Shown here piece by piece: positions 28,787 through 60,450 of a DNA stretch of 64,000 bases. The notes under the pieces are model-generated. The model was given only the letters and a program-made list of their open reading frames with translations. It did no database searches and had not been told where the DNA came from. The stretch covers positions 96,114 through 160,113 of the forward strand of contig CAZWVL010000002.1 of assembly GCA_964637115.1 (NCBI GenBank). The letters run 5' to 3'. How positions within the stretch are numbered: position 1 is the stretch's first letter; the number at the start of each line of letters is the position of its first letter. Source of the DNA: an uncultured Methanosarcinales archaeon (GTDB lineage: Archaea > Nanobdellota > Nanobdellia > Woesearchaeales > ARS49). The position numbers were made by a program, and so were the translations under genes.

Positions 28787-28822
28787 ATATTAAGAGGAAA
28801 AGAGTCAGTATTTAAAGATTGT

Positions 28823-29527
28823 TTAGAACGGCTCGACTTTTCGCTTTGCACTCTTAAGGTAAGCACCCGTTTTTTGCATCTTAACTGCAAATGCATCAGC
28901 AGCTCTTTCTTCTTTTTCAACTGAAGCTGATGAAAACCAGGCAATGGGAGAAAACACGCGCACAAAACCAACACTGAACTTTCCCCAGGATGCACGTGAT
29001 TTCACATGATGCAATTCGTGCAAGAGAACAGCGTCCAATTCCTTCTTTGAAAGCAGTTCAAACATGCCGACGGATATGAAAATCTTCTTTCCAAGCGTGA
29101 AAGCGACCGGCTTTGCTTTGTCAACCAAAAATAATTCTGCCTTAATCCCTGCTATCCTGCACAATTCTTTGAATTGTTTAAAGGACAGCGGTTTAGAAAT
29201 TTTTCTGTATATGCGAGGGATGATGGCATATCCTGCAACAAATGACAATGCCATCACGACAGGCAGGAAGTAAATGACAAATTTAGTCAGCAGCGTCGTG
29301 CACCATTCAAGCAATCCCTGTGCAAAACTCATACTGCAATTAATTGACAGAGCAAAATAAAACAATGGTGACACCAAGAAAAACAAGTGCGCATACAGCA
29401 GTGCAGGCCTGTCATATTTTTTCCAGGCAAAAAACGCAACACTGGCAAACAGCAAGGAAGCCACCACTAATAGCATCTTTGCAGGGTCGGTTGCAAACAA
29501 CACCGCACTATCAATAATTCCATTCAC
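28823..29527 (-). CDS. BlaR1-like M48/M56 membrane zinc peptidase
   Basis: Three N-terminal TMs, PVAFTLG, AVLLHELHH, EERAADAFA. Confidence 0.88.
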   Translation of the reverse strand: MNGIIDSAVLFATDPAKMLLVVASLLFASVAFFAWKKYDRPALLYAHLFFLVSPLFYFALSINCSMSFAQGLLEWCTTLLTKFVIYFLPVVMALSFVAGYAIIPRIYRKISKPLSFKQFKELCRIAGIKAELFLVDKAKPVAFTLGKKIFISVGMFELLSKKELDAVLLHELHHVKSRASWGKFSVGFVRVFSPIAWFSSASVEKEERAADAFAVKMQKTGAYLKSAKRKVEPF

Positions 29528-29889
29528 CTTTTTCTAAACCTCTCGTTAAAGTATGAAACAGCCGTCGGGCCAAAAGTTTCAATAAGCTGGTTGACTGTTT
29601 TTTCAACAACAGATTTCTCAAATGAATTCTTGTCCTGCGTTGGGTAATAAATATATCGCACGCCGCCTCTTGCCGTTTCAATCTTTCTGGCTACAATGCC
29701 CTTGTCGTGCAAACGGTCGCAAATAACAGCAACAGAACTTAGTGCGACTTTTGATTTAAGCTTTTCGTGAATCTCCCTGACGCGCATTTTCTTGTCCGGC
29801 CAGAGCACTTTCAATACGTCACCTTCCAGCGGGCTCATTAAAGAATCAAAATCAGCAACTTTTTCTTTCATGTTTGCTATAAAGTCCAC
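29524..29889 (-). CDS. BlaI/MecI/CopY-family transcriptional repressor
   Basis: SPLEGDVLKVLW...VREIHE...SSVAVICDRLHDKGIV wHTH; 4-nt overlap with the peptidase gene. Confidence 0.88.
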   Translation of the reverse strand: MDFIANMKEKVADFDSLMSPLEGDVLKVLWPDKKMRVREIHEKLKSKVALSSVAVICDRLHDKGIVARKIETARGGVRYIYYPTQDKNSFEKSVVEKTVNQLIETFGPTAVSYFNERFRKR

Positions 29890-29903
29890 AATCTTTAAAT
29901 ACT

Positions 29904-29918
29904 TTACGCTTGGTGTAA
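29904..29918. promoter_or_regulatory. Candidate BlaI-like operator, site 1 (TTACG-N5-TGTAA)
   Basis: Inverted repeat between the TATA-like TTTAAATA (29894-29901) and ATG 29927. Confidence 0.5.
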
Positions 29919-29926
29919 CGGTTTAG

Positions 29927-30733
29927 ATGAAACGTACACTTTTATTTATCACGCTCTTGTCATTGCTTGGCTGCGCCACGCCGCCATTGGAAATGTCATC
30001 TATGCCGATGGAGCACGACATGAACATGGATGCGAAGATGATAGTCCATGGAGAGATGAACAATTCATTGGAGGTCATGGACTTTAACATAGCATTCGAG
30101 CGACCACCAGCTGAAACAGGAAAAACAGCGCCTCTAAAATTCAATCTTTCACGGCAAGGCGAGCCACTGACGGAATTGCAAATAATGCATGACAAACCAA
30201 TGCACGTCATCCTTGTCAGAAAAGATTTGAAGCATTTTGATCATGTCCATCCAGAGCAGCCTGAGCCAGGAATCTTTGTCGTGCCATACATTTTTGCTGC
30301 ATCGGGAGAATACCGTATTTGGACGGATTTTATGTATGGCAACATGCAGCACATCATTGATTTTGATATTAACGTGACCGGAGAACCAGAAGCAAAAGAA
30401 CCGGACAAACTCAATGGTTTACATGTTGCAATCAATCAGCCTGAACAGATAACTGAAGGAAAAGCAGCACCGTTCACTTTTACTATTACAGATGAAACTG
30501 GAAAGGCAGTACCCATTACTGAAAAATTCCTTGCTGCCGCAGGGCATTTAATACTCATAGATGAAACTTTGAACGAATTTTCACATGCTCACGATGAGAA
30601 AATGGACAACGACAATGTCCTGTCCTTCGAATACACTCCTGAAAATCCAGGAAAACACAAAGCATGGGTTCAGTTCTCGGTCGATGGGCAAAACAGAACT
30701 GCGGCGTTTGAATTTGCTGTTCGCAAAGCTTAA
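29927..30733 (+). CDS. His/Met-rich metal-binding lipoprotein with two Ig-like domains
   Basis: LLGC lipobox; MSSMPMEHDMNMD; HVILVRKDLKHFDHVHP and HLILIDETLNEFSHAH. Confidence 0.8.
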   Translation: MKRTLLFITLLSLLGCATPPLEMSSMPMEHDMNMDAKMIVHGEMNNSLEVMDFNIAFERPPAETGKTAPLKFNLSRQGEPLTELQIMHDKPMHVILVRKDLKHFDHVHPEQPEPGIFVVPYIFAASGEYRIWTDFMYGNMQHIIDFDINVTGEPEAKEPDKLNGLHVAINQPEQITEGKAAPFTFTITDETGKAVPITEKFLAAAGHLILIDETLNEFSHAHDEKMDNDNVLSFEYTPENPGKHKAWVQFSVDGQNRTAAFEFAVRKA

Positions 30734-30744
30734 ATATAGAAGCG

Positions 30745-30759
30745 TTACATTAATTGTAA
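30745..30759. promoter_or_regulatory. Candidate BlaI-like operator, site 2 (TTACA-N5-TGTAA)
   Basis: Perfect inverted repeat between TTAAATAT (30730-30737) and ATG 30764. Confidence 0.55.
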
Positions 30760-30763
30760 GACT

Positions 30764-31171
30764 ATGACACTCAAAGAAAAACTGGTGGGAAGCGCCGGAG
30801 CGGTATCAGGAGTAACGAGCGCACTGGGCGGATATCAGGTCTGCCACAATCTGTGCATGTCGGTTATTGCACTGCTTGGAATATTAGGCATAACAGTTGC
30901 AGGAATGCCACTAATGTTTCTTACAAAAATAGCAATACCATTCTGGATTGCGGCTGTTGCTATGCTTGGCGTCCTCGTCTTCATGCGCATTAGAATGAAA
31001 TGCGTATCAGGAAAATTACTCGTGTTTAATTCTGGTCTCATTATCGCCGGAATACCGTTTGCACCGTTCAAAAATTACCCAGCCGCACTCTGGAGCGTTG
31101 GCGGACTGCTAATAGTTATTACAGTTGTATCATACATTAAAGGGAAATTCAATGGCAAAAAGAAAAAATAA
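30764..31171 (+). CDS. 4-TM membrane protein with CHxxC motif
   Basis: QVCHNLCMS in the first hydrophobic segment; reminiscent of MerC-like transporters (family not confirmed). Confidence 0.7.
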   Translation: MTLKEKLVGSAGAVSGVTSALGGYQVCHNLCMSVIALLGILGITVAGMPLMFLTKIAIPFWIAAVAMLGVLVFMRIRMKCVSGKLLVFNSGLIIAGIPFAPFKNYPAALWSVGGLLIVITVVSYIKGKFNGKKKK

Positions 31172-31886
31172 ACAAAGCAATTTTATCATTGCAGGCATTG
31201 TGATAGCAATCGTGCTTATAGCATTCAACTTCTATATGACTTCCCAAATTAAAAAACTGCAGCCGACAACACAGGAAAATGCACCGATGATGGGAAAATC
31301 AATGTCCAGAATGGGCTTCACTGAATTTGACAAGCAAAAAGCGCGGGAATTCATGGACAAAAACAATGATGGCAAGTGCGACATCTGCGGGATGCCTATA
31401 GAGCAATGCATTGCTTCTGGCATGATGCAGTGCAGCGGCATGGACCCAAATGCCACAATGGGACTGCTCGGCTCCCAGCACATACACGCGGACTGGAAAA
31501 TTTATCTTAACGGAAAAGAATTTGACTGGTCGCCATATGCAGAGCGACACCACAAACAAATGATGGGAGACAAGAGCATTACGGATACAAGCGCATTCAT
31601 ACATATCCACCCGGCCGAAGGGCAGGAAAAAGGAGGAGATATTATGCATATGCACGCGACTGGCATACCACTTAGCCTCTTCTTTGAGAGTCTGGGCATG
31701 AAATTTGACAAAAACTGCCTGGAAGCGGATAGCAAGAAATACTGTAATCTAAAAATGTACGTGAATGGAAAAGAAAATACTGAATTTGAAGAGTATGTAT
31801 TCAATGATTTAGACAAAATTTTAATCACGGATAAAAAAACTGAAGAGCAAATGAAAAGCATAACAAACTTCGCGGAGGCACATTAG
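31152..31886 (+). CDS. Exported protein with DxNxDG-CxxC module and HxH domain
   Basis: TM anchor, MDKNNDGKCDICGM, HIHADW, FIHIHP, HMHATG; likely start 31152. Confidence 0.75.
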   Translation: MAKRKNKQSNFIIAGIVIAIVLIAFNFYMTSQIKKLQPTTQENAPMMGKSMSRMGFTEFDKQKAREFMDKNNDGKCDICGMPIEQCIASGMMQCSGMDPNATMGLLGSQHIHADWKIYLNGKEFDWSPYAERHHKQMMGDKSITDTSAFIHIHPAEGQEKGGDIMHMHATGIPLSLFFESLGMKFDKNCLEADSKKYCNLKMYVNGKENTEFEEYVFNDLDKILITDKKTEEQMKSITNFAEAH

Positions 31887-31887
31887 G

Positions 31888-32352
31888 ATGAAAAGAATAT
31901 TCCTGGGATTATTGCTCGTGCTGGTTGCGTGCGCACCAGCTCAGACGGTGAAGGAATCTCCGCAAAAAGGATTTGACATACACCTTGATGCGCAGCACTC
32001 GGTAAAAGACGCAAAGCCAGTAGTGCATCACTGGTGCAAGCGCATAAATGCAGAAATCGTTGAATGCCTCATGTTTGATTCAGACAAAGCAAACGCAAAT
32101 CTCGTCGGTGTTGAGACGATGATACCAAACGATGTATGGAACACATTGAGCGAGGAACAGAAGAAAGAATGGCACAACCATGCTGAAAAAGTAAAACCAG
32201 AACAATTCGTTGATATGACTCCAGAAGAAGCAGCGAAGACTGCTGATGACTTAAAAAATACTTATGGCAGAGTAACATACTTCTGGAACTTCCCCAAAGA
32301 CCAATATCCTGTAGTGCGGCCATTCCTAGACTCGGACCCGGTGACCCAATGA
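31888..32352 (+). CDS. DUF1264/OBAP-like lipoprotein
   Basis: LVAC lipobox; HHWCK..ECLMFD..ANLVGVE..WHNH. Confidence 0.75.
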   Translation: MKRIFLGLLLVLVACAPAQTVKESPQKGFDIHLDAQHSVKDAKPVVHHWCKRINAEIVECLMFDSDKANANLVGVETMIPNDVWNTLSEEQKKEWHNHAEKVKPEQFVDMTPEEAAKTADDLKNTYGRVTYFWNFPKDQYPVVRPFLDSDPVTQ

Positions 32353-32699
32353 AACAGGAATACCTTCTTGCAGGAATATGCGTCGTGCTGGTGGCTATCG
32401 TCGGCTTTCAGGCATATTCGATGTTAGGATTATCAAAAAACACAAATGTCCAGGCGGCTTCTGCGCCAGCACAGCAAGCACCACAGTTAAAGCTCCCTGC
32501 AAACATTCAATCAAGCGCGCCAATGAGTTTTGCCAGCTTTGAAGAAGAAGTTGCGTATTACAAGAAGAATGCAAATAATCCGAAGAATATCAATATAGAA
32601 CAGGCAGTGCGCAACATGGATGCAAATCATGATGGCCTGTGCGACAAATGTGGCATGGCAATCCTGCACTGCATAGAACAAGGAATGGAGAATATGTAG
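32349..32699 (+). CDS. Small exported protein with DxNxDG-CxxC module
   Basis: TM anchor, A/P/Q linker, MDANHDGLCDKCGMAILHC. Confidence 0.75.
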   Translation: MKQEYLLAGICVVLVAIVGFQAYSMLGLSKNTNVQAASAPAQQAPQLKLPANIQSSAPMSFASFEEEVAYYKKNANNPKNINIEQAVRNMDANHDGLCDKCGMAILHCIEQGMENM

Positions 32700-32879
32700 A
32701 TGAAATGTGGGAAGCACAAATGGCTCATATCCCTTTGCTGCCTGCTTCCCATACTTATCATTGTTGCACTGCCGCTTTTTGGCATACGAAATCAGTATAT
32801 CAGCTGGCTTGCATTTCTCGCATGCCCGTTAGCCATGCTGCTCATGATGATGAACAATGATAAAAAAAGGTGCCACTAA
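32700..32879 (+). CDS. DUF2933-like small membrane protein (59 aa)
   Basis: Not in the ORF track. MKCGKHKWLISLCCLLPILIIVALPLFGIRNQYISWLAFLACPLAMLLMMMNNDKKRCH; ATG directly follows the upstream TAG. Confidence 0.8.
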   Translation: MKCGKHKWLISLCCLLPILIIVALPLFGIRNQYISWLAFLACPLAMLLMMMNNDKKRCH

Positions 32880-32932
32880 GATGAATGAAAAGCTCACATC
32901 TGCACACAAGCAGAATATGAGGAGTATGTGAA

Positions 32933-33889
32933 ATGAAGAAGTTAATGCCACTATTCATCATCGCAGCACTGCTGACCATTTCTGCTTATGCACTCGAACT
33001 ACCACCAGGAGTGCAGAAACTTCTCGAATATCAGAACACAGTTGCACTTTCTATAACGTTTTTAATTGCATTCCTCGGCGGAATAATAACGTTCACATCA
33101 CCCTGCGGATTTGTTGTTTTACCGACCTTTTTTTCATACCTTTTCAAAGAAAGAAAACGTGCAATGTTCATGACTGCAATATTCTCACTCGGCATGACCA
33201 CCGCATTCATAATTTTTGGAATAATCGCCGGAGCAGTTGGAAATTTCTTCAACGATTACAAAACATTCTTTGCATCCCTTTCCGGCATACTGCTTGTTAT
33301 ATTTGGAATCATGCTCATTTTCAATGTCGGCTTCAGCATATTTGACTTCAAAGTCAAGCACAAGCCAAACCATGGCTGGGGAGTTTTCTTTCTCGGATTT
33401 TTCTTCGCAATTGGCTGGACGCCGTGCGTCGGACCTATACTCGGCGGCATAATCGTCCTGGCAACAGGAGTTGGAAGCATACTAAAATCAGCGCTCCTGT
33501 TCGGCTTCTATGCACTAGGCGTTGCACTGCCACTTCTCATTGTATCGTACTTCTCTGACAAATATGATGTTGCCAGATGGTTCACCAGCAAGCACGTCGA
33601 ATTCAGCATATTTGGAAAGAAAATATACACGCACCTCTATGGAATCATCGGCGGCATAATTTTGATAATAGTCGGACTCATCATGTTCTTCCAAAAAGGC
33701 ACAAAAATTTTCATGGACAAAATTCCCGAATATCTTCCATGGACTATGGATATGTTCACTGATGTCAATGAAAAGCTGGTTGAGTCGGCATTTTTCACCA
33801 GCAGGACAGCAAACATTATCGGTATCATTATTGGACTTGTGTTATTGTTTGTTTTATGGAAAGCAATATGGCATCACAAAAAAGAATAA
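32933..33889 (+). CDS. ccdA: CcdA/DsbD transmembrane electron-transfer protein
   Basis: TFTSPCGFVVLP and GWTPCVGPILG Cys pair, multiple TMs. Confidence 0.9.
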   Translation: MKKLMPLFIIAALLTISAYALELPPGVQKLLEYQNTVALSITFLIAFLGGIITFTSPCGFVVLPTFFSYLFKERKRAMFMTAIFSLGMTTAFIIFGIIAGAVGNFFNDYKTFFASLSGILLVIFGIMLIFNVGFSIFDFKVKHKPNHGWGVFFLGFFFAIGWTPCVGPILGGIIVLATGVGSILKSALLFGFYALGVALPLLIVSYFSDKYDVARWFTSKHVEFSIFGKKIYTHLYGIIGGIILIIVGLIMFFQKGTKIFMDKIPEYLPWTMDMFTDVNEKLVESAFFTSRTANIIGIIIGLVLLFVLWKAIWHHKKE

Positions 33890-33914
33890 ATAGGAGGAGT
33901 TAAAGCACACACTT

Positions 33915-34595
33915 ATGCAAGACGATGGTTCAAAAGAAGTGTTGGACGCGCTTACGGGACATGAACGCCGCGAGCAAGCGAAAAAAGCAAAAGAAGAAGC
34001 TCGCGAGCAGAAAGAATCAGCACAAGAAGCAAAAGAACAAAAAAAGAGCTACTTTTGGATAGCCGTTACTCTCATAGTTCTCATCGCATTTGCAGGCGGC
34101 GTCTGGTGGCTGTACACGCACAAAAAAGAAACATATACGGACGGTCCTGTTCACTGGCACGTGCTTCTGGATATTAGAATTTGCGGGGAAAAACGCGATA
34201 TACGCGGCGGCAAAACATCGGGAAACATGGGTGACAAGGCCATGTATGGACCCCACTTGCTGCACCACCATAACGACAATACCATTCACATCGAAGGACA
34301 AATCATAAAGAAAGAAGACATTGCACTTGGAAACTTCTTTGACGGAATAGATATTCCATTTGACAAAGACAAAATAATGGACAAGAAAAACGGCGACTTA
34401 TGTCCTGATGGCAGGCCTGGTGTGTTAAAGATGTACGTAAATGACCAGCCAAGAACAGACTTCAGAGATTACGTGCCATTCGCAGTTCAGGACGCGCGCA
34501 AACAAATTGTCAAGCTCGTGTTTGAACCGGAAGGCGGAATGGCAGCAAATGTTACTGCGGCAAACACGACAAATATAACTAATACAAGTTCGTAA
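33915..34595 (+). CDS. Single-TM protein with exported HxH domain
   Basis: HWHVLLDIRICG, LHHHNDNTIHIEG, LGNFF, LKMYVN; paralog of the C-domain of 31152-31886. Confidence 0.75.
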   Translation: MQDDGSKEVLDALTGHERREQAKKAKEEAREQKESAQEAKEQKKSYFWIAVTLIVLIAFAGGVWWLYTHKKETYTDGPVHWHVLLDIRICGEKRDIRGGKTSGNMGDKAMYGPHLLHHHNDNTIHIEGQIIKKEDIALGNFFDGIDIPFDKDKIMDKKNGDLCPDGRPGVLKMYVNDQPRTDFRDYVPFAVQDARKQIVKLVFEPEGGMAANVTAANTTNITNTSS

Positions 34596-34613
34596 AGCTT
34601 TTATACTAAAGCT

Positions 34614-34628
34614 TTTCAATGAATGTAA
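34614..34628. promoter_or_regulatory. Candidate BlaI-like operator, site 3 (TTTCA-N5-TGTAA)
   Basis: Between TTTTATA (34599-34605) and ATG 34649. Confidence 0.45.
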
Positions 34629-34648
34629 AGCAATAGGCAGGTGTAAAA

Positions 34649-35404
34649 ATGACAGAACATCACAAAGAACAGGAAGTAAGCAGTTCAACGATATGGCTCA
34701 TTGCCATCGCAGCAGTGTTAATTCTTTTCAACCAGATACAATTATTCCAGCTTGGCAATATGGTCGGTGTTCCGGTATTTGGCGGCATCGGCGGAAGCAA
34801 GCTCTCATTTTCAGGCGGCGAAGGAAAAACATTAGCGCCAGTGCTTCTGGCAGCAGGAGAAAGCCCAGTACTTCCAGGCTACGGCACAAAAGTCAAAGAG
34901 CTTCCAACAATCAGCAAATCGCCAGCAAAGAAAGAAACCGGCGATGCAGCACAAGACGCATTGAATTTCCTTGTTCCAACCGGCGTACCAGAATACGGCC
35001 AGGAAGTAGGAATCACGTTTGATGATCCGATAGGCGCACAAAAAGTCTGGGGTGCTTACGACAGAAGCATACAACTAACTCCAGAACAGCAGAAACGCTG
35101 GGATAAAATAGTGGGCTCATTCACCTGCGACTACTGCTGCGGCTCGCCACAAAGGCCGACAATAATCACCCACTGCGGATGTGCGCACGCACGAGCATGG
35201 AGAGGAATGGCAAAATGGTTCATCACTAACATGGGCGACCAAGTAAGTGATGAACAAATAATGGGAGAGTTAAGCAAATGGAAAGCACTCTGGTATCCAG
35301 GACCAACTGTCAAACGAGTTGTCCAGGAACAATCTCTCGCATCAGGAGATACATCAGCACCAGTCAAACTTGACGACCTGCCGCAAATGGTAGGCGGATG
35401 TTAG
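34649..35404 (+). CDS. Exported Cys-cluster protein ending LPQMVGGC
   Basis: TM anchor; CDYCCG-x10-CGCAH cluster; C-terminal DDLPQMVGGC. Confidence 0.8.
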   Translation: MTEHHKEQEVSSSTIWLIAIAAVLILFNQIQLFQLGNMVGVPVFGGIGGSKLSFSGGEGKTLAPVLLAAGESPVLPGYGTKVKELPTISKSPAKKETGDAAQDALNFLVPTGVPEYGQEVGITFDDPIGAQKVWGAYDRSIQLTPEQQKRWDKIVGSFTCDYCCGSPQRPTIITHCGCAHARAWRGMAKWFITNMGDQVSDEQIMGELSKWKALWYPGPTVKRVVQEQSLASGDTSAPVKLDDLPQMVGGC

Positions 35405-35414
35405 GAGGCAAAAA

Positions 35415-35618
35415 ATGAACAAAAACGTCGTAATTGCAATCGTGCTTGGAGCACTCGTGTTAATCGCGGGCATACAAGCATTCCAGCTATTTACCTTGAA
35501 GGATAAGCTGGGAAGCGGACAGTTAAGCGCTGGAACTAGCACACAGGCGAGCTCAGGAGGCAATCCACAGCTACCAAGCAACCTGCAAAATCTGCCAGAA
35601 ATGGTCGGCGGCTGTTAA
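35415..35618 (+). CDS. Small TM-anchored peptide ending LPEMVGGC
   Basis: GGAGG RBS; TM, G/S linker, QNLPEMVGGC. Confidence 0.8.
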   Translation: MNKNVVIAIVLGALVLIAGIQAFQLFTLKDKLGSGQLSAGTSTQASSGGNPQLPSNLQNLPEMVGGC

Positions 35619-35646
35619 TTAGTTTTTTTTAAATTGCTTTTTTAAC
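35619..35646 (+). terminator. Oligo-T tract, candidate archaeal terminator
   Basis: T runs immediately after the stop codon. Confidence 0.4.
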
Positions 35647-35714
35647 TTATATTTTGATGAGGGCAAAAGCATAAATACCAGTGGTTCTCCGACCAGAACA
35701 AGAGGGGCATACAC

Positions 35715-36863
35715 ATGACAAAAGAAGATAAACTCAGCAATATCAACACATACTTGATAATCGCACTTGTTATCGTTGTCGGCATTGGATTGTACTTTAC
35801 ACTTTCCGTTCCTGTTAAAGAAGCACCAAAAGCCATCCCTCCAAAAGAAGTAATGGTAACAATTCTCCAAGGATGCGAAGACTGCTTCAACATCAGCGCG
35901 GCAACAGACTTCCTTAAACAGCAGAAGAACATTAACATTACATCAACAAAAGAACTCAGTCTTGAAGAAGCAGCAGCAGAAGCAGCCAAGTATGGCATCA
36001 CCAAGCTGCCAGCAGCAATAATTACGGGAGACATTGCAAATCTGACAATAGAGAATTTCGACACGAAAGAAAATGCGCTAGTATTCGATAAATCGCCGCC
36101 ACCATACTATGATGTTTCAGCAGGAGCTGTAAAAGGAAAAGTAATTGTAACAATAATCGAAGACAAAAGCTGCACCAACTGCTTTGACATGAGCCAGATT
36201 ATGGACCAGCTCAAGAGCGCAGGCATCAAGATAACAAGCGAGACAAGAGTAGATGCCAAGAGCACAGACGGAAAGCAGCTCATATCACAATACAAGATAG
36301 AAAAGGTTCCAACACTTATTTTCAACAATGACGCTTTAGAATATGATGTTGTAACACAAGTCTGGGACCAAGTTGGCAGCAAGGAAAGCGACGGCAGCCT
36401 TGTATTAAGGCTTGTCACCCCGCCATACGTCAACGTAAGCACGGGCAAAATAGAAGGACTTGTGGAAATGACAATGCTTACAGATAAAGGCTGCAAAGAA
36501 TGTTACAATGCAAGCGTGCTTCAAGACTTGTTCAGCCAGAGCTTCGGCATGACATTCAAAAAGGCGAAGAATGTGGATGTCGCAAGCACTGAAGGAAAAA
36601 CCCTGCTCAAGAAATACAGTATAGAACTTGTTCCAACAGTCATATTGTCAAAAGATGCAAGCGCATATCCAAACCTGCCGCAATCGTGGAAGCAGATTGG
36701 CAGCCAAGAGAAGGACGGCGTGTATGTCTTCAGAAGCATTCCACTGCTTCAAGACTACTTTGCAGAATCAGGCGGAAGTTTTGCCTATAAGAACGTAAGT
36801 TCAGGCGAAGTAATGCCGAAGAAAGAAGAAGCAGAGATAACTGCACCTTCTGAAGAAAAGTAA
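35715..36863 (+). CDS. Exported protein with three thioredoxin-like CxxC domains
   Basis: CEDC, CTNC and CKEC, each followed by a cis-Pro-like KLP/KVP/LVP loop. Confidence 0.8.
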   Translation: MTKEDKLSNINTYLIIALVIVVGIGLYFTLSVPVKEAPKAIPPKEVMVTILQGCEDCFNISAATDFLKQQKNINITSTKELSLEEAAAEAAKYGITKLPAAIITGDIANLTIENFDTKENALVFDKSPPPYYDVSAGAVKGKVIVTIIEDKSCTNCFDMSQIMDQLKSAGIKITSETRVDAKSTDGKQLISQYKIEKVPTLIFNNDALEYDVVTQVWDQVGSKESDGSLVLRLVTPPYVNVSTGKIEGLVEMTMLTDKGCKECYNASVLQDLFSQSFGMTFKKAKNVDVASTEGKTLLKKYSIELVPTVILSKDASAYPNLPQSWKQIGSQEKDGVYVFRSIPLLQDYFAESGGSFAYKNVSSGEVMPKKEEAEITAPSEEK

Positions 36864-36943
36864 TTCTTTTTTTATAGTTATTTTTAATGATAAAGTTTAA
36901 ATACTTAGATTATTGTAACTCTTCTATCAAAAGTGGTGAGGGT

Positions 36944-37090
36944 ATGATGAAAGCAAAGTACCGATGCGGCGGGTGCAACTGGAAGTTTACTAGAAACTAC
37001 CAGCCAAATTTGTGCCCATATTGCGGCAAAGCAGCAATTTCTATTGACGCAACGCAAGCTGCAGACGAATTGTTAAGAGAAATAGAGTGA
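36944..37090 (+). CDS. Small C4 zinc-finger protein (48 aa)
   Basis: GGTGAGG RBS; CGGC...CPYC; track start 36887 is probably too long. Confidence 0.75.
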   Translation: MMKAKYRCGGCNWKFTRNYQPNLCPYCGKAAISIDATQAADELLREIE

Positions 37091-37140
37091 CTTTTTCTCA
37101 ATTCATAACATTTATCTAATTGAAGTTTTTTTCTTTGCAC

Positions 37141-37482
37141 ATGCGGGCGTGGATTGCATTCGGAATTTTAATTGCATTAATTCTGCTTGTAAATTTTGGA
37201 CCTATGCTATTAGCAAGCGGATGTCCAAGCAAACAATACGGCAATGGTAGCTCAGTTATCAAGTATTTCTCATCACCATTCTGCTTGGCGTGCTGGGCGC
37301 AAAAACCCATTATAGAACGCGTTGCTGCTGAAGAAAACGTAACTTTTGAAGAATACGATGTTGACTTTTGCAGGGATGCAGCAACGCCACATTACGTCAG
37401 AGGAGTTCCAGCATTCAAAGTTGGCGATACAATTAAATACGGCCTCCAGAACGAGGAACAACTAAGGGAGATGGTCGGATGA
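37141..37482 (+). CDS. Exported thioredoxin-family protein
   Basis: TM anchor; YFSSPFCLAC, VRGVPAF. Confidence 0.8.
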   Translation: MRAWIAFGILIALILLVNFGPMLLASGCPSKQYGNGSSVIKYFSSPFCLACWAQKPIIERVAAEENVTFEEYDVDFCRDAATPHYVRGVPAFKVGDTIKYGLQNEEQLREMVG

Positions 37483-37679
37483 AATACAGAATTCTGCTGG
37501 CAGCACTGTGCTTAGGAATACTTGTTGGATTAACATTCTTCGGCCAATCTGAAGTAACGCCGACTGGAACAGCATCATTCAATTGCTACGTCGAGAACGA
37601 GCCCTGCAGCTGCGACGATAAACAGTGTGTTTGCGGTGAACATACTGTACCTATAGAGTATTGCAGTAAAAAAGCTTAA
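37479..37679 (+). CDS. Small exported Cys-rich peptide
   Basis: Signal, PTG, then NCYVENEPCSCDDKQCVCGEHTVPIEYC. Confidence 0.7.
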   Translation: MKYRILLAALCLGILVGLTFFGQSEVTPTGTASFNCYVENEPCSCDDKQCVCGEHTVPIEYCSKKA

Positions 37680-37705: not shown

Positions 37706-37882
37706 ATGAATACAGAATACATATTTTACACCGTCGGCATAATATTCATGATTGCCGCAGTTTTATACTTCACCTGGGACTATTTATTCCAGCTTGCACG
37801 AAGCCTCAAAATTGTTGCACTCATCTTACTAACATTGTTCTTCTATTTCATGGCAAATTTCTTCAAGGAGCGTGATCTTTAA
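37706..37882 (+). CDS. Small 2-TM protein (58 aa)
   Basis: Not in the track. MNTEYIFYTVGIIFMIAAVLYFTWDYLFQLARSLKIVALILLTLFFYFMANFFKERDL; TAATG coupling to the next gene. Confidence 0.7.
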   Translation: MNTEYIFYTVGIIFMIAAVLYFTWDYLFQLARSLKIVALILLTLFFYFMANFFKERDL

Positions 37883-38703
37883 TGCCATCAACCTGGGCTC
37901 CTATCGTGTTTTGGGTATTGCTAGTGCCATTACTGATAATAATGTTAATAGTGTATTTGCGCAGCAAGAAATTTTCCAGACTTGTCTTCATATTAAGCGT
38001 TTTTACGTACGCAATGACAGTCATGTACTGGATTGACGCTTACTTGCTAGGAAGAAACGCCATTGTTTTCCTTCTCGTAATTTCATCATTGCTAATGATG
38101 TTCGTCGGCTGGCTAATTCACAAAGAGAAAAGAGAAAAATCGTGGGGCGGATGGAAAATAGCCACGACATGCATGGCAGCCATAGCGATTATTGTAGCGC
38201 TAAGCGCATCACCGATTGGATGGAAAATTTCAACAAGTTCGACGCCCTCAATCAAACTGAGCGAGTTACAGCCAATCCTTGAAGAAGGACAGCCAAGTTA
38301 CAGCGCATCATTCCAGATTTACACAGTTACGGTAACCAATACATTCATTCCAAGACAATACGAACTGCCGCAAGCATCAGCATGCTTGTATAACATCGAG
38401 AAAAAAGCAGCAACGAATGCAAATGTCTTCTGGAGCGAGCCAGGAGTGCAGTCAGATTTCGGGCTTCCAGGCAACACAGTTGAAGTAGGCAGAGGAAGCA
38501 AAACAGCAACACTCAAAATCAGCCAGAGTCCATATTACAAGCCAGCGCCCCGCGAAGCAAAGCCAGTACAATTTGAGCCGCAAGTGTGGAATGAGCTTTA
38601 CTTGTTCTTGAGCACAGGTAGAACATATCAGTATGTCGACTGCTACAACTTTGACTCTGTAGACAAAAGCAAGGCGATAAAAATACTAATCTCTCAGGAC
38701 TAA
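37882..38703 (+). CDS. Membrane protein with exported C-terminal domain
   Basis: Four N-terminal TMs followed by a soluble domain. Confidence 0.7.
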   Translation: MPSTWAPIVFWVLLVPLLIIMLIVYLRSKKFSRLVFILSVFTYAMTVMYWIDAYLLGRNAIVFLLVISSLLMMFVGWLIHKEKREKSWGGWKIATTCMAAIAIIVALSASPIGWKISTSSTPSIKLSELQPILEEGQPSYSASFQIYTVTVTNTFIPRQYELPQASACLYNIEKKAATNANVFWSEPGVQSDFGLPGNTVEVGRGSKTATLKISQSPYYKPAPREAKPVQFEPQVWNELYLFLSTGRTYQYVDCYNFDSVDKSKAIKILISQD

Positions 38704-43241: not shown

Positions 43242-43358
43242 TTTGACCACCTCATTTATACTACTGCTAGGTGGTAAATTGGTATTTTAAGTTTTGTTAC
43301 CCCTTTTGGAGATATAAGATGAGAAAGCTTATATAGGCCGGAATGGGATTTTAGGCCA

Positions 43359-59905: not shown

Positions 59906-60450
59906 ATGAGTTAAGAAAATTATCAAACCAGCTCACGCTGCTTAGAATCGTGCTCGTTCCTGTTCTATGGGTGCTGGCAGCGCTCAAAATGAACACTGCC
60001 TTTGCAATTTTTCTCTTTACGGCAGGCTTGACAGACGCGCTTGATGGAATTGCTGCAAGGATGCTAAAGCAAAAATCTGACTTTGGAGTCTGGTTTGACT
60101 CATTTGCTGACAATCTTATAGCCGCATCTGCAGCATTCTGGACTTGGTTGCTTCTTCCAGATTTTGTTTATCAGAATCTTGCTATCATCAGCATCCTTGT
60201 TGTATTATTTGTACTAAGCCTTGGCCTGGGCTTTATCAAATATGGAAGAATGGTAGACTATCATATGTATGCAGGCAAAACGTCTGCTATTTTCCTATAC
60301 GTTTTTGTCGTGCATTCCCTGCTGTTTACACCAAATCAGATCTTTTTGTATATTACGGCAGCGGTAATTGCGATAGGGCTTCTTGAAGAAATACTTGTGA
60401 CACTTGTGAACAAATCATTCCAAAAGAACAAAAAGTCAATATTTTTCTAG
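59902..60450 (+). CDS. CDP-alcohol phosphatidyltransferase (PgsA-like)
   Basis: NQLTLLR, TDALDGIAAR...SDFG..FD..AD. Confidence 0.9.
   Translation: MNELRKLSNQLTLLRIVLVPVLWVLAALKMNTAFAIFLFTAGLTDALDGIAARMLKQKSDFGVWFDSFADNLIAASAAFWTWLLLPDFVYQNLAIISILVVLFVLSLGLGFIKYGRMVDYHMYAGKTSAIFLYVFVVHSLLFTPNQIFLYITAAVIAIGLLEEILVTLVNKSFQKNKKSIFF

Follow-up and report, generated by a model that had tools for sequence, protein, structure and literature searches.

The stretch of DNA considered here (the window, 64,000 nucleotides, G000:C2:96114-160113) belongs to a Woesearchaeales genome of 1.27 Mb (G000), 98% complete in 27 contigs, and carries a divergent locus in which a minus-strand pair of genes, coding for a repressor and a membrane protease, faces 14 co-directional open reading frames (ORFs) on the plus strand (Table 1). 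Gene families were assigned with Pfam and NCBIfam models and their cut-offs. The first-pass annotation of this DNA, made from the letters alone, had presented the locus as a BlaI/BlaR-controlled system for extracytoplasmic thiol-redox and copper handling. The genes it listed are real, as all are present as open frames at their coordinates in the ORF list and the repressor, the protease, the DUF1264 protein and CcdA match their families above cut-off, but it counted 13 co-directional genes instead of 14. Besides, the intergenic gap, given as 37 bp, would measure 55 bp, since the repressor orthologues of relatives begin at MKEK in the alignment, i.e. at ATG 29871, the likely true start, instead of the GTG start. 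That almost all products are exported or membrane-anchored holds for 13 of the 14, which are rich in Cys, His and Met and display an N-terminal transmembrane (TM) segment, a lipobox or several TM segments in a hydropathy scan, but not for the Zn-ribbon protein, the sole downstream product with neither. A motif scan of the locus products found no CxxCH, as had been stated, and the label of DUF2933-like given to the two-TM miniprotein comes down to a resemblance by eye, no Pfam match to DUF2933 being obtained at E up to 0.1. The sequencing runs listed as containing the stretch are all of sediment DNA, with no RNA run among them.

Table 1. Genes and promoter features of the locus, in window coordinates.
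Feature	Position	Strand	Evidence
M48/M56 membrane metalloprotease, 234 amino acids (aa)	28823..29527	-	Pfam, motifs
BlaI/CopY-family winged-helix repressor, 121 aa (from annotated start)	29524..29889	-	Penicillinase_R 57.5 bits
Divergent promoter P1 and operator O1	29894..29918	.	TATA TTTAAATA 29894-29901, O1 TTACGCTTGGTGTAA 29904-29918
Met/His-rich lipoprotein, lipobox LLGC	29927..30733	+	motifs
Internal promoter P2 (AAGCTTAAATATA) and operator O2 TTACATTAATTGTAA (30745-30759)	30726..30759	+	pattern, matrix
CHxxC polytopic membrane protein	30764..31171	+	motif
DxN1: DxNxDG-CxxCGM module and His-cluster domain, membrane-anchored	31152..31886	+	alignment
Exported DUF1264 protein, lipobox-like LVAC	31888..32352	+	DUF1264 model
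DxN2: short DxNxDG-CxxC paralogue without His domain	32349..32699	+	DNA repeat, synteny
Two-TM Cys-rich miniprotein, 59 aa	32700..32879	+	hydropathy
CcdA/DsbD-type transmembrane electron carrier	32933..33889	+	DsbD_TM/CcdA 43.9 bits
HxH2: membrane-anchored His-cluster paralogue	33915..34595	+	motifs HWH, HxH, HxE, one conserved Cys
Internal promoter P3 (AAAGCTTTTATACT) and degenerate operator O3 TTTCAATGAATGTAA (34614-34628)	34594..34628	+	matrix
CysClu, ends in LPQMVGGC	34649..35404	+	alignment
MVGGC miniprotein, 67 aa, ends in LPEMVGGC	35415..35618	+	alignment
Triple thioredoxin-fold protein, membrane-anchored	35715..36863	+	thioredoxin-like domains with CEDC, CTNC, CKEC
Small cytoplasmic Zn-ribbon protein (CGGC...CPYC)	36887..37090	+	family match
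Single-domain thioredoxin (CLAC), membrane-anchored	37120..37482	+	family match
Exported 66-aa peptide with 7 Cys	37479..37679	+	Cys count, hydropathy

Sequence comparison supports the assignment of the control unit to the BlaI plus short BlaR-like type, in line with the control first proposed for the locus. The repressor matches Penicillinase_R (PF03965; score in Table 1, cut-off 22.6) over residues 19-115, and its C-terminal FG..A..YF..RF is conserved in DPANN-wide homologues. It contains one Cys in total, none C-terminal, lacks a CxC metal hook and scores only 31 bits vs. a cut-off of 121.95 with the copper-sensing CopY/TcrY subfamily (TIGR02698), the CxCx4CxC motif of which is absent. The start of the protease gene overlaps the stop of the repressor gene by 4 nt (29524-29527). 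The protease has three predicted TM segments, HELHH at residues 168-172 and a downstream E..AD motif, both motifs being conserved in alignments of homologues; it matches Peptidase_M48 (PF01435) with 31.6 bits (cut-off 20.3) and remains at 20.1 bits, under the cut-off of 31, with M56 (PF05569). The polypeptide ends after the protease domain and the penicillin-binding sensor domain is absent (blaR1_generic, 19.9 bits vs. a cut-off of 400). In the outward TM2-TM3 loop, 23 close orthologues all share a Cys pair (C64 and C76), which at least 80% of 50 homologues from across DPANN also have, and the pairing of repressor and protease is retained in about 50 loci.

Regarding the operator, the palindrome TTACR-N5-YGTAA directly follows the TATA box at three promoters of the locus (P1, P2 and P3, O3 being degenerate), the centre of the P1 TATA box lying about 26 nt from the repressor ATG (29871) and about 30 nt from ATG 29927, and O2 ending 4 nt ahead of ATG 30764. 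Operator-like boxes had been flagged in the first-pass annotation and they stand out from chance, with TTAC-N7-GTAA occurring three times in the window for 0.53 expected, a number reached in 0 of 100 shuffles; two of the three are locus sites and the third lies at 60353. Genome-wide, this tight pattern has only six sites, three of which lie no more than 25 nt from a gene start (those of the first and second locus genes and of copA). When a matrix built from 38 sites in other genomes only was scanned against G000, the four best scores in 1.27 Mb were those of P1 (24.0), copA (21.7), P2 (21.3) and P3/CysClu (18.1), i.e. four sites scoring at least 18 vs. 0.2 in Markov shuffles. Lower matches at C19:7871, C12:22015, C4:48768 and C3:151565 were set aside as lying inside coding sequence, and a TTAC-N7-GTAA upstream of the ribosomal protein S6e gene (C3:72723), located before the TATA box, probably occurs there by chance. 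This predicted dyad operator with TACA/TGTA half-sites, present at P1, P2, P3 and copA, is conserved in relatives, where 19 of 24 orthologous divergent intergenic regions have it after their TATA box, down to 50% repressor identity. In other genomes, extra operators precede the CHxxC, CysClu, HxH or CcdA genes where these form separate units; a core identical to O2 precedes the orthologous CHxxC gene in another genus (L045), and the sites before the CysClu gene are perfect in L048 and L049, as compared with the degenerate O3. The ACA/TGT half-sites are the same as in BlaI, MecI, CopY and PetR, with a spacer of 5 nt vs. 2 in the cop box and 3 in PetR. The canonical cop box TACANNTGTA itself was considered and discarded, one window copy (31120) for 0.44 expected being not significant; this sole copy (TACAGTTGTA, 31120-31129) falls within the 3'-terminal part of the CHxxC gene, the DxN1 ATG following 23 nt further on, and may be due to chance.

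The first-pass annotation had noted the lack of a P1B-ATPase, which is right for the locus but not for the rest of the genome, where the search uncovered copA on another contig (C3). It codes for an 858-aa P1B-1 ATPase with CPC, YN and MxxSS motifs, two HMA domains and a YHS-like N-terminus, and the operator palindrome stands 3 nt before its ATG, directly after the TATA box. The notion of a stand-alone, ATP-independent system is not supported, as the locus appears to be co-regulated with the ATP-driven CopA. CopA is present in every repressor-bearing genome and the site at copA was found in 10 of 18 repressor-bearing relatives vs. 0 of 11 without the repressor, a difference that also holds when the unpublished genome G010 is left out. 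In L063 (G007), L066 (G036) and L068 (G032), the copA leader is about 10 nt shorter and the right half-site is formed by the start and Val codons (TTACAATTATGGTAA, ATGGTAA); since these two codons supply the half-site, the palindrome has been kept through the deletion. The gene divergent from copA (G000:C3:129544-130500, 318 aa) shares the operator-bearing intergenic region, and its product resembles, by eye, a membrane protein of the Ca2+/cation antiporter type.

Of the surface proteins, CysClu consists of a TM anchor, a linker, a helical domain and the C-terminal LPQMVGGC, with C160, C163, C164, C176, C178 and H180 (CxxCC...CGCxH) as invariant residues. Its AlphaFold2 (AF2) model, with a predicted local distance difference test score (pLDDT) of 87, was aligned to the CcmH periplasmic domain 2hl7 with Z 5.1 and a root-mean-square deviation of 2.7 Å over 71 of 82 residues, covering C160/C163; this is the only fold match with Z of at least 5 and stands at Foldseek rank 35 with E 3.3, no Foldseek match reaching E ≤0.001. 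No match was obtained with Pfam or NCBIfam or in a profile search of PDB sequences, and the CcmH/NrfF model (PF03918) finds nothing in the whole genome at E up to 10 and none of 36 CysClu family members. The outward-facing three-helix bundle of CcmH, NrfF and CycL, with a CxxC in its first loop, may correspond to the modelled domain, and CcmH, a thiol oxidoreductase that receives electrons via CcdA/DsbD, provides the sole solved structure with a likeness to it; CysClu, however, has three extra invariant Cys and a His and is without sequence match to CcmH, and the Z score is just 5.1, so that the likeness suggested by the model is a resemblance, not membership. In the ESM Atlas, CysClu meets just unnamed clusters (scores 0.81-0.83), and its 341 database relatives are all unnamed and without Pfam domains; at 50% identity, the family forms 264 clusters among 1.84 billion representatives. 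Long homologues (400-435 aa; P0059, P0061, P0095, P0097, P0107 and others), e.g. in Aenigmatarchaeota, bear an N-terminal polytopic domain with CPxC in a helix. The proposal that the CHxxC protein corresponds to this membrane domain was rejected (BLASTP E 0.31), the pattern C-x2-C...G.TV...PL.FL being shared by eye only. The MVGGC miniprotein is reduced to a TM anchor with QxxQL at the helix end, a low-complexity linker and the C-terminal LPxMVGGC. The LPxMVGGC-COOH tail and the QxxQL motif are invariant in alignments, and among G000 proteins only CysClu and the miniprotein have this C-terminus.

The thiol-redox set proposed at first is borne out by CcdA, four thioredoxin domains and outward-facing products. 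CcdA matches DsbD_TM/CcdA (PF02683; score in Table 1, cut-off 27.1), its TM cysteines (SPC, CxGP) are conserved in 36 homologues and it carries a C-terminal extension. As a second, shorter CcdA is encoded elsewhere in the genome (G000:C15:10576-11196, a 233-aa frame, 71.7 bits), that of the locus would be a specialised paralogue with a C-terminal extension. In addition, it is left without other obvious client, since searches of genome G000 yielded neither a multicopper oxidase nor VKOR nor any gene for cytochrome c assembly. Each of the three domains of the triple thioredoxin has a conserved CxxC, and the single thioredoxin likely starts at ATG 37141. The lipoprotein, a variable first gene in relatives, combines a Met/His-rich N-terminus with two Ig-like repeats bearing conserved FDHxHP and FxHxHD; it scores 22.7 bits with the YtkA-like model (PF13115), under the cut-off of 25.9, and can be regarded from its sequence as a candidate Cu-binding protein. 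The CHxxC protein, without Pfam or NCBIfam match, has a conserved QVCHNxC (CHNLC in G000) in a TM helix and a third conserved Cys. In DxN1, the alignment indicates as invariant H110, H112, D114, H151, H166, H168, the C-terminal H244 and four Cys, and fold searches with its AF2 model (pLDDT 82) returned just weak beta-grasp/DUF4430-like matches (Z 4.3-4.7). All members of the His-cluster family have F(A/S)xxH-COOH as their last residues, which places a potential metal ligand at the extreme C-terminus, like in the MVGGC proteins. Searches of PDB sequences gave nothing useful for the His-cluster protein, the lipoprotein or the DUF1264 protein, the latter matching DUF1264 (PF06884) with 87.2 bits for a cut-off of 25. 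DxN2 is related to DxN1 by 72% DNA identity over 60 nt (repeat D1). Since the orientation of the Zn-ribbon gene varies among relatives, this gene is probably a separate transcription unit.

In a near-relative survey of 61 genomes of the order, including G000, the repressor was found in 24, i.e. among relatives in 22 of 36 of the same family vs. 1 of 24 of other families, and the module, as traced with the CysClu profile, in 27. Repressor and CysClu occur together in 23 genomes, the repressor only in one (73% complete), CysClu only in four and neither in 33. Because both are absent from 5 of 14 same-genus genomes (83-97% complete, of which G010 is unpublished), the module appears accessory, not essential. 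The synteny reads glutamyl-tRNA synthetase - protease - repressor / (lipoprotein) - CcdA - HxH - CysClu - MVGGC - triple thioredoxin - Zn ribbon - thioredoxin - Cys peptide, with an optional CHxxC-DxN1-DxN2-miniprotein block in six genomes among the close loci; DUF1264 is found in G000 only among 24 close loci and in 2 of 80 distant loci.

Beyond the order, a scan of DPANN archaea with one genome per species yielded 80 CysClu loci in Woese-, Pace-, Aenigmat-, Iain- and Nanoarchaeota. The triple thioredoxin accompanies CysClu in 71 of them, the DxN1 type in 51, CHxxC in 40 and the two-TM miniprotein in 7, and the MVGGC family in 78 with more sensitive clustering. Where at least 5 kb of downstream sequence is available (48 loci), the triple thioredoxin is present in 45, the MVGGC miniprotein in 43, the His-cluster protein in 40, CHxxC in 21 and CcdA in 16. 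In 11-12 of the 80 loci, a CopA gene stands no further than 10 kb from the module, often in the same direction. A divergent repressor was found in 22 of the 58 loci with enough upstream DNA, 14 of these 22 having a high-scoring operator in the gap, and such operators in the repressor-CysClu gap recur across DPANN phyla. Recurrent neighbours are rhodanese, DsbA-like, thioredoxin reductase (TrxB) and glutaredoxin-like genes. The conserved core is made of CysClu, the MVGGC miniprotein, the triple thioredoxin and the His-cluster protein, while DUF1264, DxN2, the DUF2933-like gene, the Zn finger, the small thioredoxin and the Cys peptide are lineage-specific additions. In other words, the expected conservation of the neighbourhood is seen, as genes co-occur across DPANN and the core recurs in 80 loci, but it concerns only part of the 14 genes.

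In about 28 loci, mostly without the BlaI-type repressor, another gene lies just upstream of CysClu and codes for a protein that combines two TM segments, an outward GC-x3-4-C pair and, at the C-terminus, a winged helix (DUF7343/MarR-like); it resembles an alternative, one-component regulator of this module tethered to the membrane. Examples are L126:5-505, L133:8737-9240, L142:8839-9339, L155:8833-9336 and about 24 more, often about 100 nt upstream of CysClu.

No description of such a cluster was found in the literature under the topics BlaR1/BlaI-archaea-copper and DPANN-CcdA-thioredoxin-copper, the papers on MVGGC being unrelated, in keeping with the first label of a candidate undescribed system. 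The closest regulatory analogue is PetR/PetP (slr0241/slr0240) of Synechocystis, a BlaI/CopY-type repressor and an M48/M56 protease with Cu-triggered cleavage of the repressor (10.1101/2020.07.31.226407, PMC7896320). In both systems, the repressor is without CxC hook, the protease is a short M48/M56 enzyme without beta-lactam sensor domain, encoded by a gene that overlaps that of the repressor, the TM2-TM3 loop contains the candidate ligands and ACA/TGT cores make up an inverted-repeat operator. Copper acts as the signal for PetR/PetP and would do so here. The PetP loop contains two conserved Met, the proposed copper ligands, whereas the archaeal protease has two conserved Cys at the same position; PetP has four TM segments vs. 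three predicted here, and the operator spacers are 3 and 5 nt, respectively. Unlike in Synechocystis, the promoter in the archaeal host is of the TATA type, with the operator over the start site, and the predicted regulon comprises copA and about 14 surface thiol/metal genes rather than a plastocyanin/cytochrome c6 switch. CopY/CopR of Firmicutes, acting on the cop box KACANNTGTA, control a CopA-type exporter (PMC7253601); the repressor family, the ACA/TGT half-sites and the CopA-type target are shared, but CopY senses copper directly via a C-terminal CxCx4CxC, a hook absent in the archaeal repressor, its operator has a 2-nt spacer and it is without partner protease.

The closest functional analogue is the copper-induced Scs system, ScsABCD (suppressor of copper sensitivity), an envelope set in which a DsbD/CcdA-type importer feeds thioredoxin-fold repair proteins, at least one of which binds Cu(I) (PMC10907172, PMC8900818, PMC3322552). 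The likeness, a CcdA-type importer with thioredoxin-fold proteins, is functional only: the Pfam and NCBIfam scans reported neither an ScsB N-terminal domain nor a DsbA-like ScsC nor a TlpA-like ScsD in the locus, and Scs is devoid of counterparts of the CysClu, MVGGC-arm and His-cluster families. Besides, the Scs regulator in enterobacteria is CpxR/CueR, of another type than the BlaI family.

The reading put forward is that of a PetR/PetP-like, proteolysis-switched copper/thiol-stress regulon of the cell surface, for which the odds are judged a little better than even (roughly 0.55). The copper link suggested at first finds its grounds in the operator common to copA, in CopA within 10 kb of the module in part of the DPANN loci and in the PetR/PetP precedent. 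From these comparisons we infer the copper role, the binding and cleavage of the repressor, the electron flow and the metal binding by the core proteins. A repressor dimer would bind the TTACR-N5-YGTAA sites and block transcription initiation, including at its own divergent promoter. The membrane protease, by analogy with PetR/PetP and BlaI/BlaR1, would sense Cu(I) or copper-driven thiol oxidation via its outward Cys pair and cleave the repressor, and derepression would release CopA, for Cu(I) export, together with the surface set. CcdA would draw electrons from the thioredoxin of the cytoplasm and pass them to the triple and the small thioredoxin, which could maintain the Cys of the CxxCC/CGCxH protein and those of the flexible MVGGC arms in the reduced state; these arms, the His-cluster protein, the Met/His lipoprotein and the small Cys-rich proteins may bind or hand on copper, and the thioredoxins may also mend copper-scrambled disulfides of surface proteins.

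Several points weigh against this proposal. The related genomes are kin and not independent, so that the phyletic counts overstate the support and are indicative only. Eight repressor-bearing relatives are without site at copA, outside this genus the copA operator extends to a few neighbours only, and no operator scoring at least 11 precedes CopA in 11 distant loci where it is adjacent. Genome G000 has further weak Penicillinase_R-like genes, the products of which are potential binders of the operator. The rhodanese genes present in 14 of the 80 loci hint at sulfur chemistry, and a Cys-pair sensor with a reductive thioredoxin set fits disulfide or oxidant stress equally well.

The other explanations were ranked by how well they account for the link to copA, for a distribution that is patchy and for the direction in which electrons would flow. 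The foremost is disulfide or oxidant-stress repair, in which the protease Cys pair senses oxidation and CcdA and the thioredoxins form a reductive isomerase pathway for Cys-rich surface proteins; copA would be a passenger in the regulon, Cu(I) toxicity being thiol toxicity. The four thioredoxin domains and CcdA in the locus, the conserved Cys pair in the sensor loop, the Cys pairs of the alternative regulators and the DsbA-like, TrxB and glutaredoxin-like genes as recurrent neighbours all speak for it, but the His-cluster and Met/His proteins are left unexplained, as are the CopA synteny (11-12 of 80 loci) and the shared copA operator, which makes it a possible yet distinctly less probable account than the copper/thiol-stress regulon.

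SoxY has a C-terminal GGCGG carrier arm and is encoded beside SoxV (a CcdA) and the exported thioredoxins SoxS/SoxW. By this parallel of a Gly-Gly-Cys arm on a flexible end, encoded beside CcdA and exported thioredoxins, the terminal Cys of the MVGGC proteins could carry a covalent adduct (persulfide or polysulfide) between CysClu and the thioredoxin domains, possibly for metal precipitation or detoxification as sulfides, CcdA and the thioredoxins resetting the arm like SoxV and SoxS/W. The invariant VGGC-COOH tail on a flexible linker in 78 of 80 loci, its restriction to two G000 proteins and the rhodanese neighbour in 14 of 80 loci are in keeping with a carrier. Against this, the miniprotein is without SoxY/SoxZ fold, the locus is without Sox enzymes, that of G000 is itself without rhodanese and the adduct is only putative; in addition, the Cys is the very last residue of the MVGGC arm, which is tethered to the membrane by an N-terminal helix, unlike in SoxY. 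A sulfur carrier of this kind thus appears doubtful.

Housekeeping oxidative folding is less probable still. The module would be a quinone-independent substitute for DsbB/VKOR, perhaps with a copper catalyst in the His-cluster domain, as might be thought from the lack of VKOR found in the genome, the CHNxC in a TM helix, the long CysClu fused to a CPxC membrane domain and the CcmH-like CxxC fold of CysClu. Yet an essential machine should not be dispensable and this module is patchy, not found in 5 of 14 same-genus genomes; besides, its repressor is common to the copper exporter and CcdA supplies electrons, which is the opposite direction. As for the absence of any single system, i.e. a repressor-controlled core of four to six genes with unrelated exported genes adjacent by chance, it is hard to credit: DUF1264, DxN2, the DUF2933-like gene, the Zn finger, the small thioredoxin, the Cys peptide and the next two genes downstream (next1/next2) are indeed rare or limited to close relatives and the Zn finger flips orientation, but operators stand before three separate units spanning the locus, a separate operator precedes the CHxxC-DxN block both in G000 and in a further genus, and loci elsewhere in DPANN contain these gene types again, arranged in varying order.

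Cys-rich proteins cover the surfaces of DPANN archaea, which live bound to other cells, and the question addressed by this locus is how such surfaces are protected and maintained. The regulon offers a predicted operator, a sensor and a target set; if the copper/thiol-stress reading is true, it would be a second, archaeal protease-type copper switch, with Cys replacing Met. Annotation is lacking for at least three protein families (CysClu, the MVGGC arm and the DxNxDG-CxxC/His-cluster family), which are conserved across several DPANN phyla and probably bind metal. More tentatively, CysClu, the MVGGC arms, the triple thioredoxin and the His-cluster protein might form a new extracytoplasmic relay in ultra-small archaea under a protease-type copper/thiol switch, the terminal Cys arm carrying Cu(I) or a sulfur adduct and being reset by CcdA-fed thioredoxins. 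Such a relay would represent a chemistry without characterised counterpart and, if the arms are carriers, a new envelope chemistry.

A few observations concern the borders and promoters of the locus. In close relatives, it is followed by two membrane-protein genes (58 and 273 aa; window 37706-38703), a pair with its own promoter box and without operator, which was not found beside the module in distant DPANN. The repressor-protease pair lies between the two arms of an exact 16-nt inverted repeat, ACAATCTTTAAATACT (28807-28822 and 29888-29903), of which the genome has no further copy; it is the same promoter core before the operon and before the glutamyl-tRNA synthetase gene (start 28786, minus strand), and the operator follows the operon copy only, not that of the synthetase gene. 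Scans for sigma-70 promoters and terminators gave matches no more numerous than in shuffles. The AAGCTTWWATA boxes were rejected as operators and read as BRE/TATA-like promoter elements; with 11 copies in the genome, three of them before cluster units (window 30726, 34595 and 37672), including the gene at 37706, and another at 43325, they probably represent a shared BRE/TATA variant.

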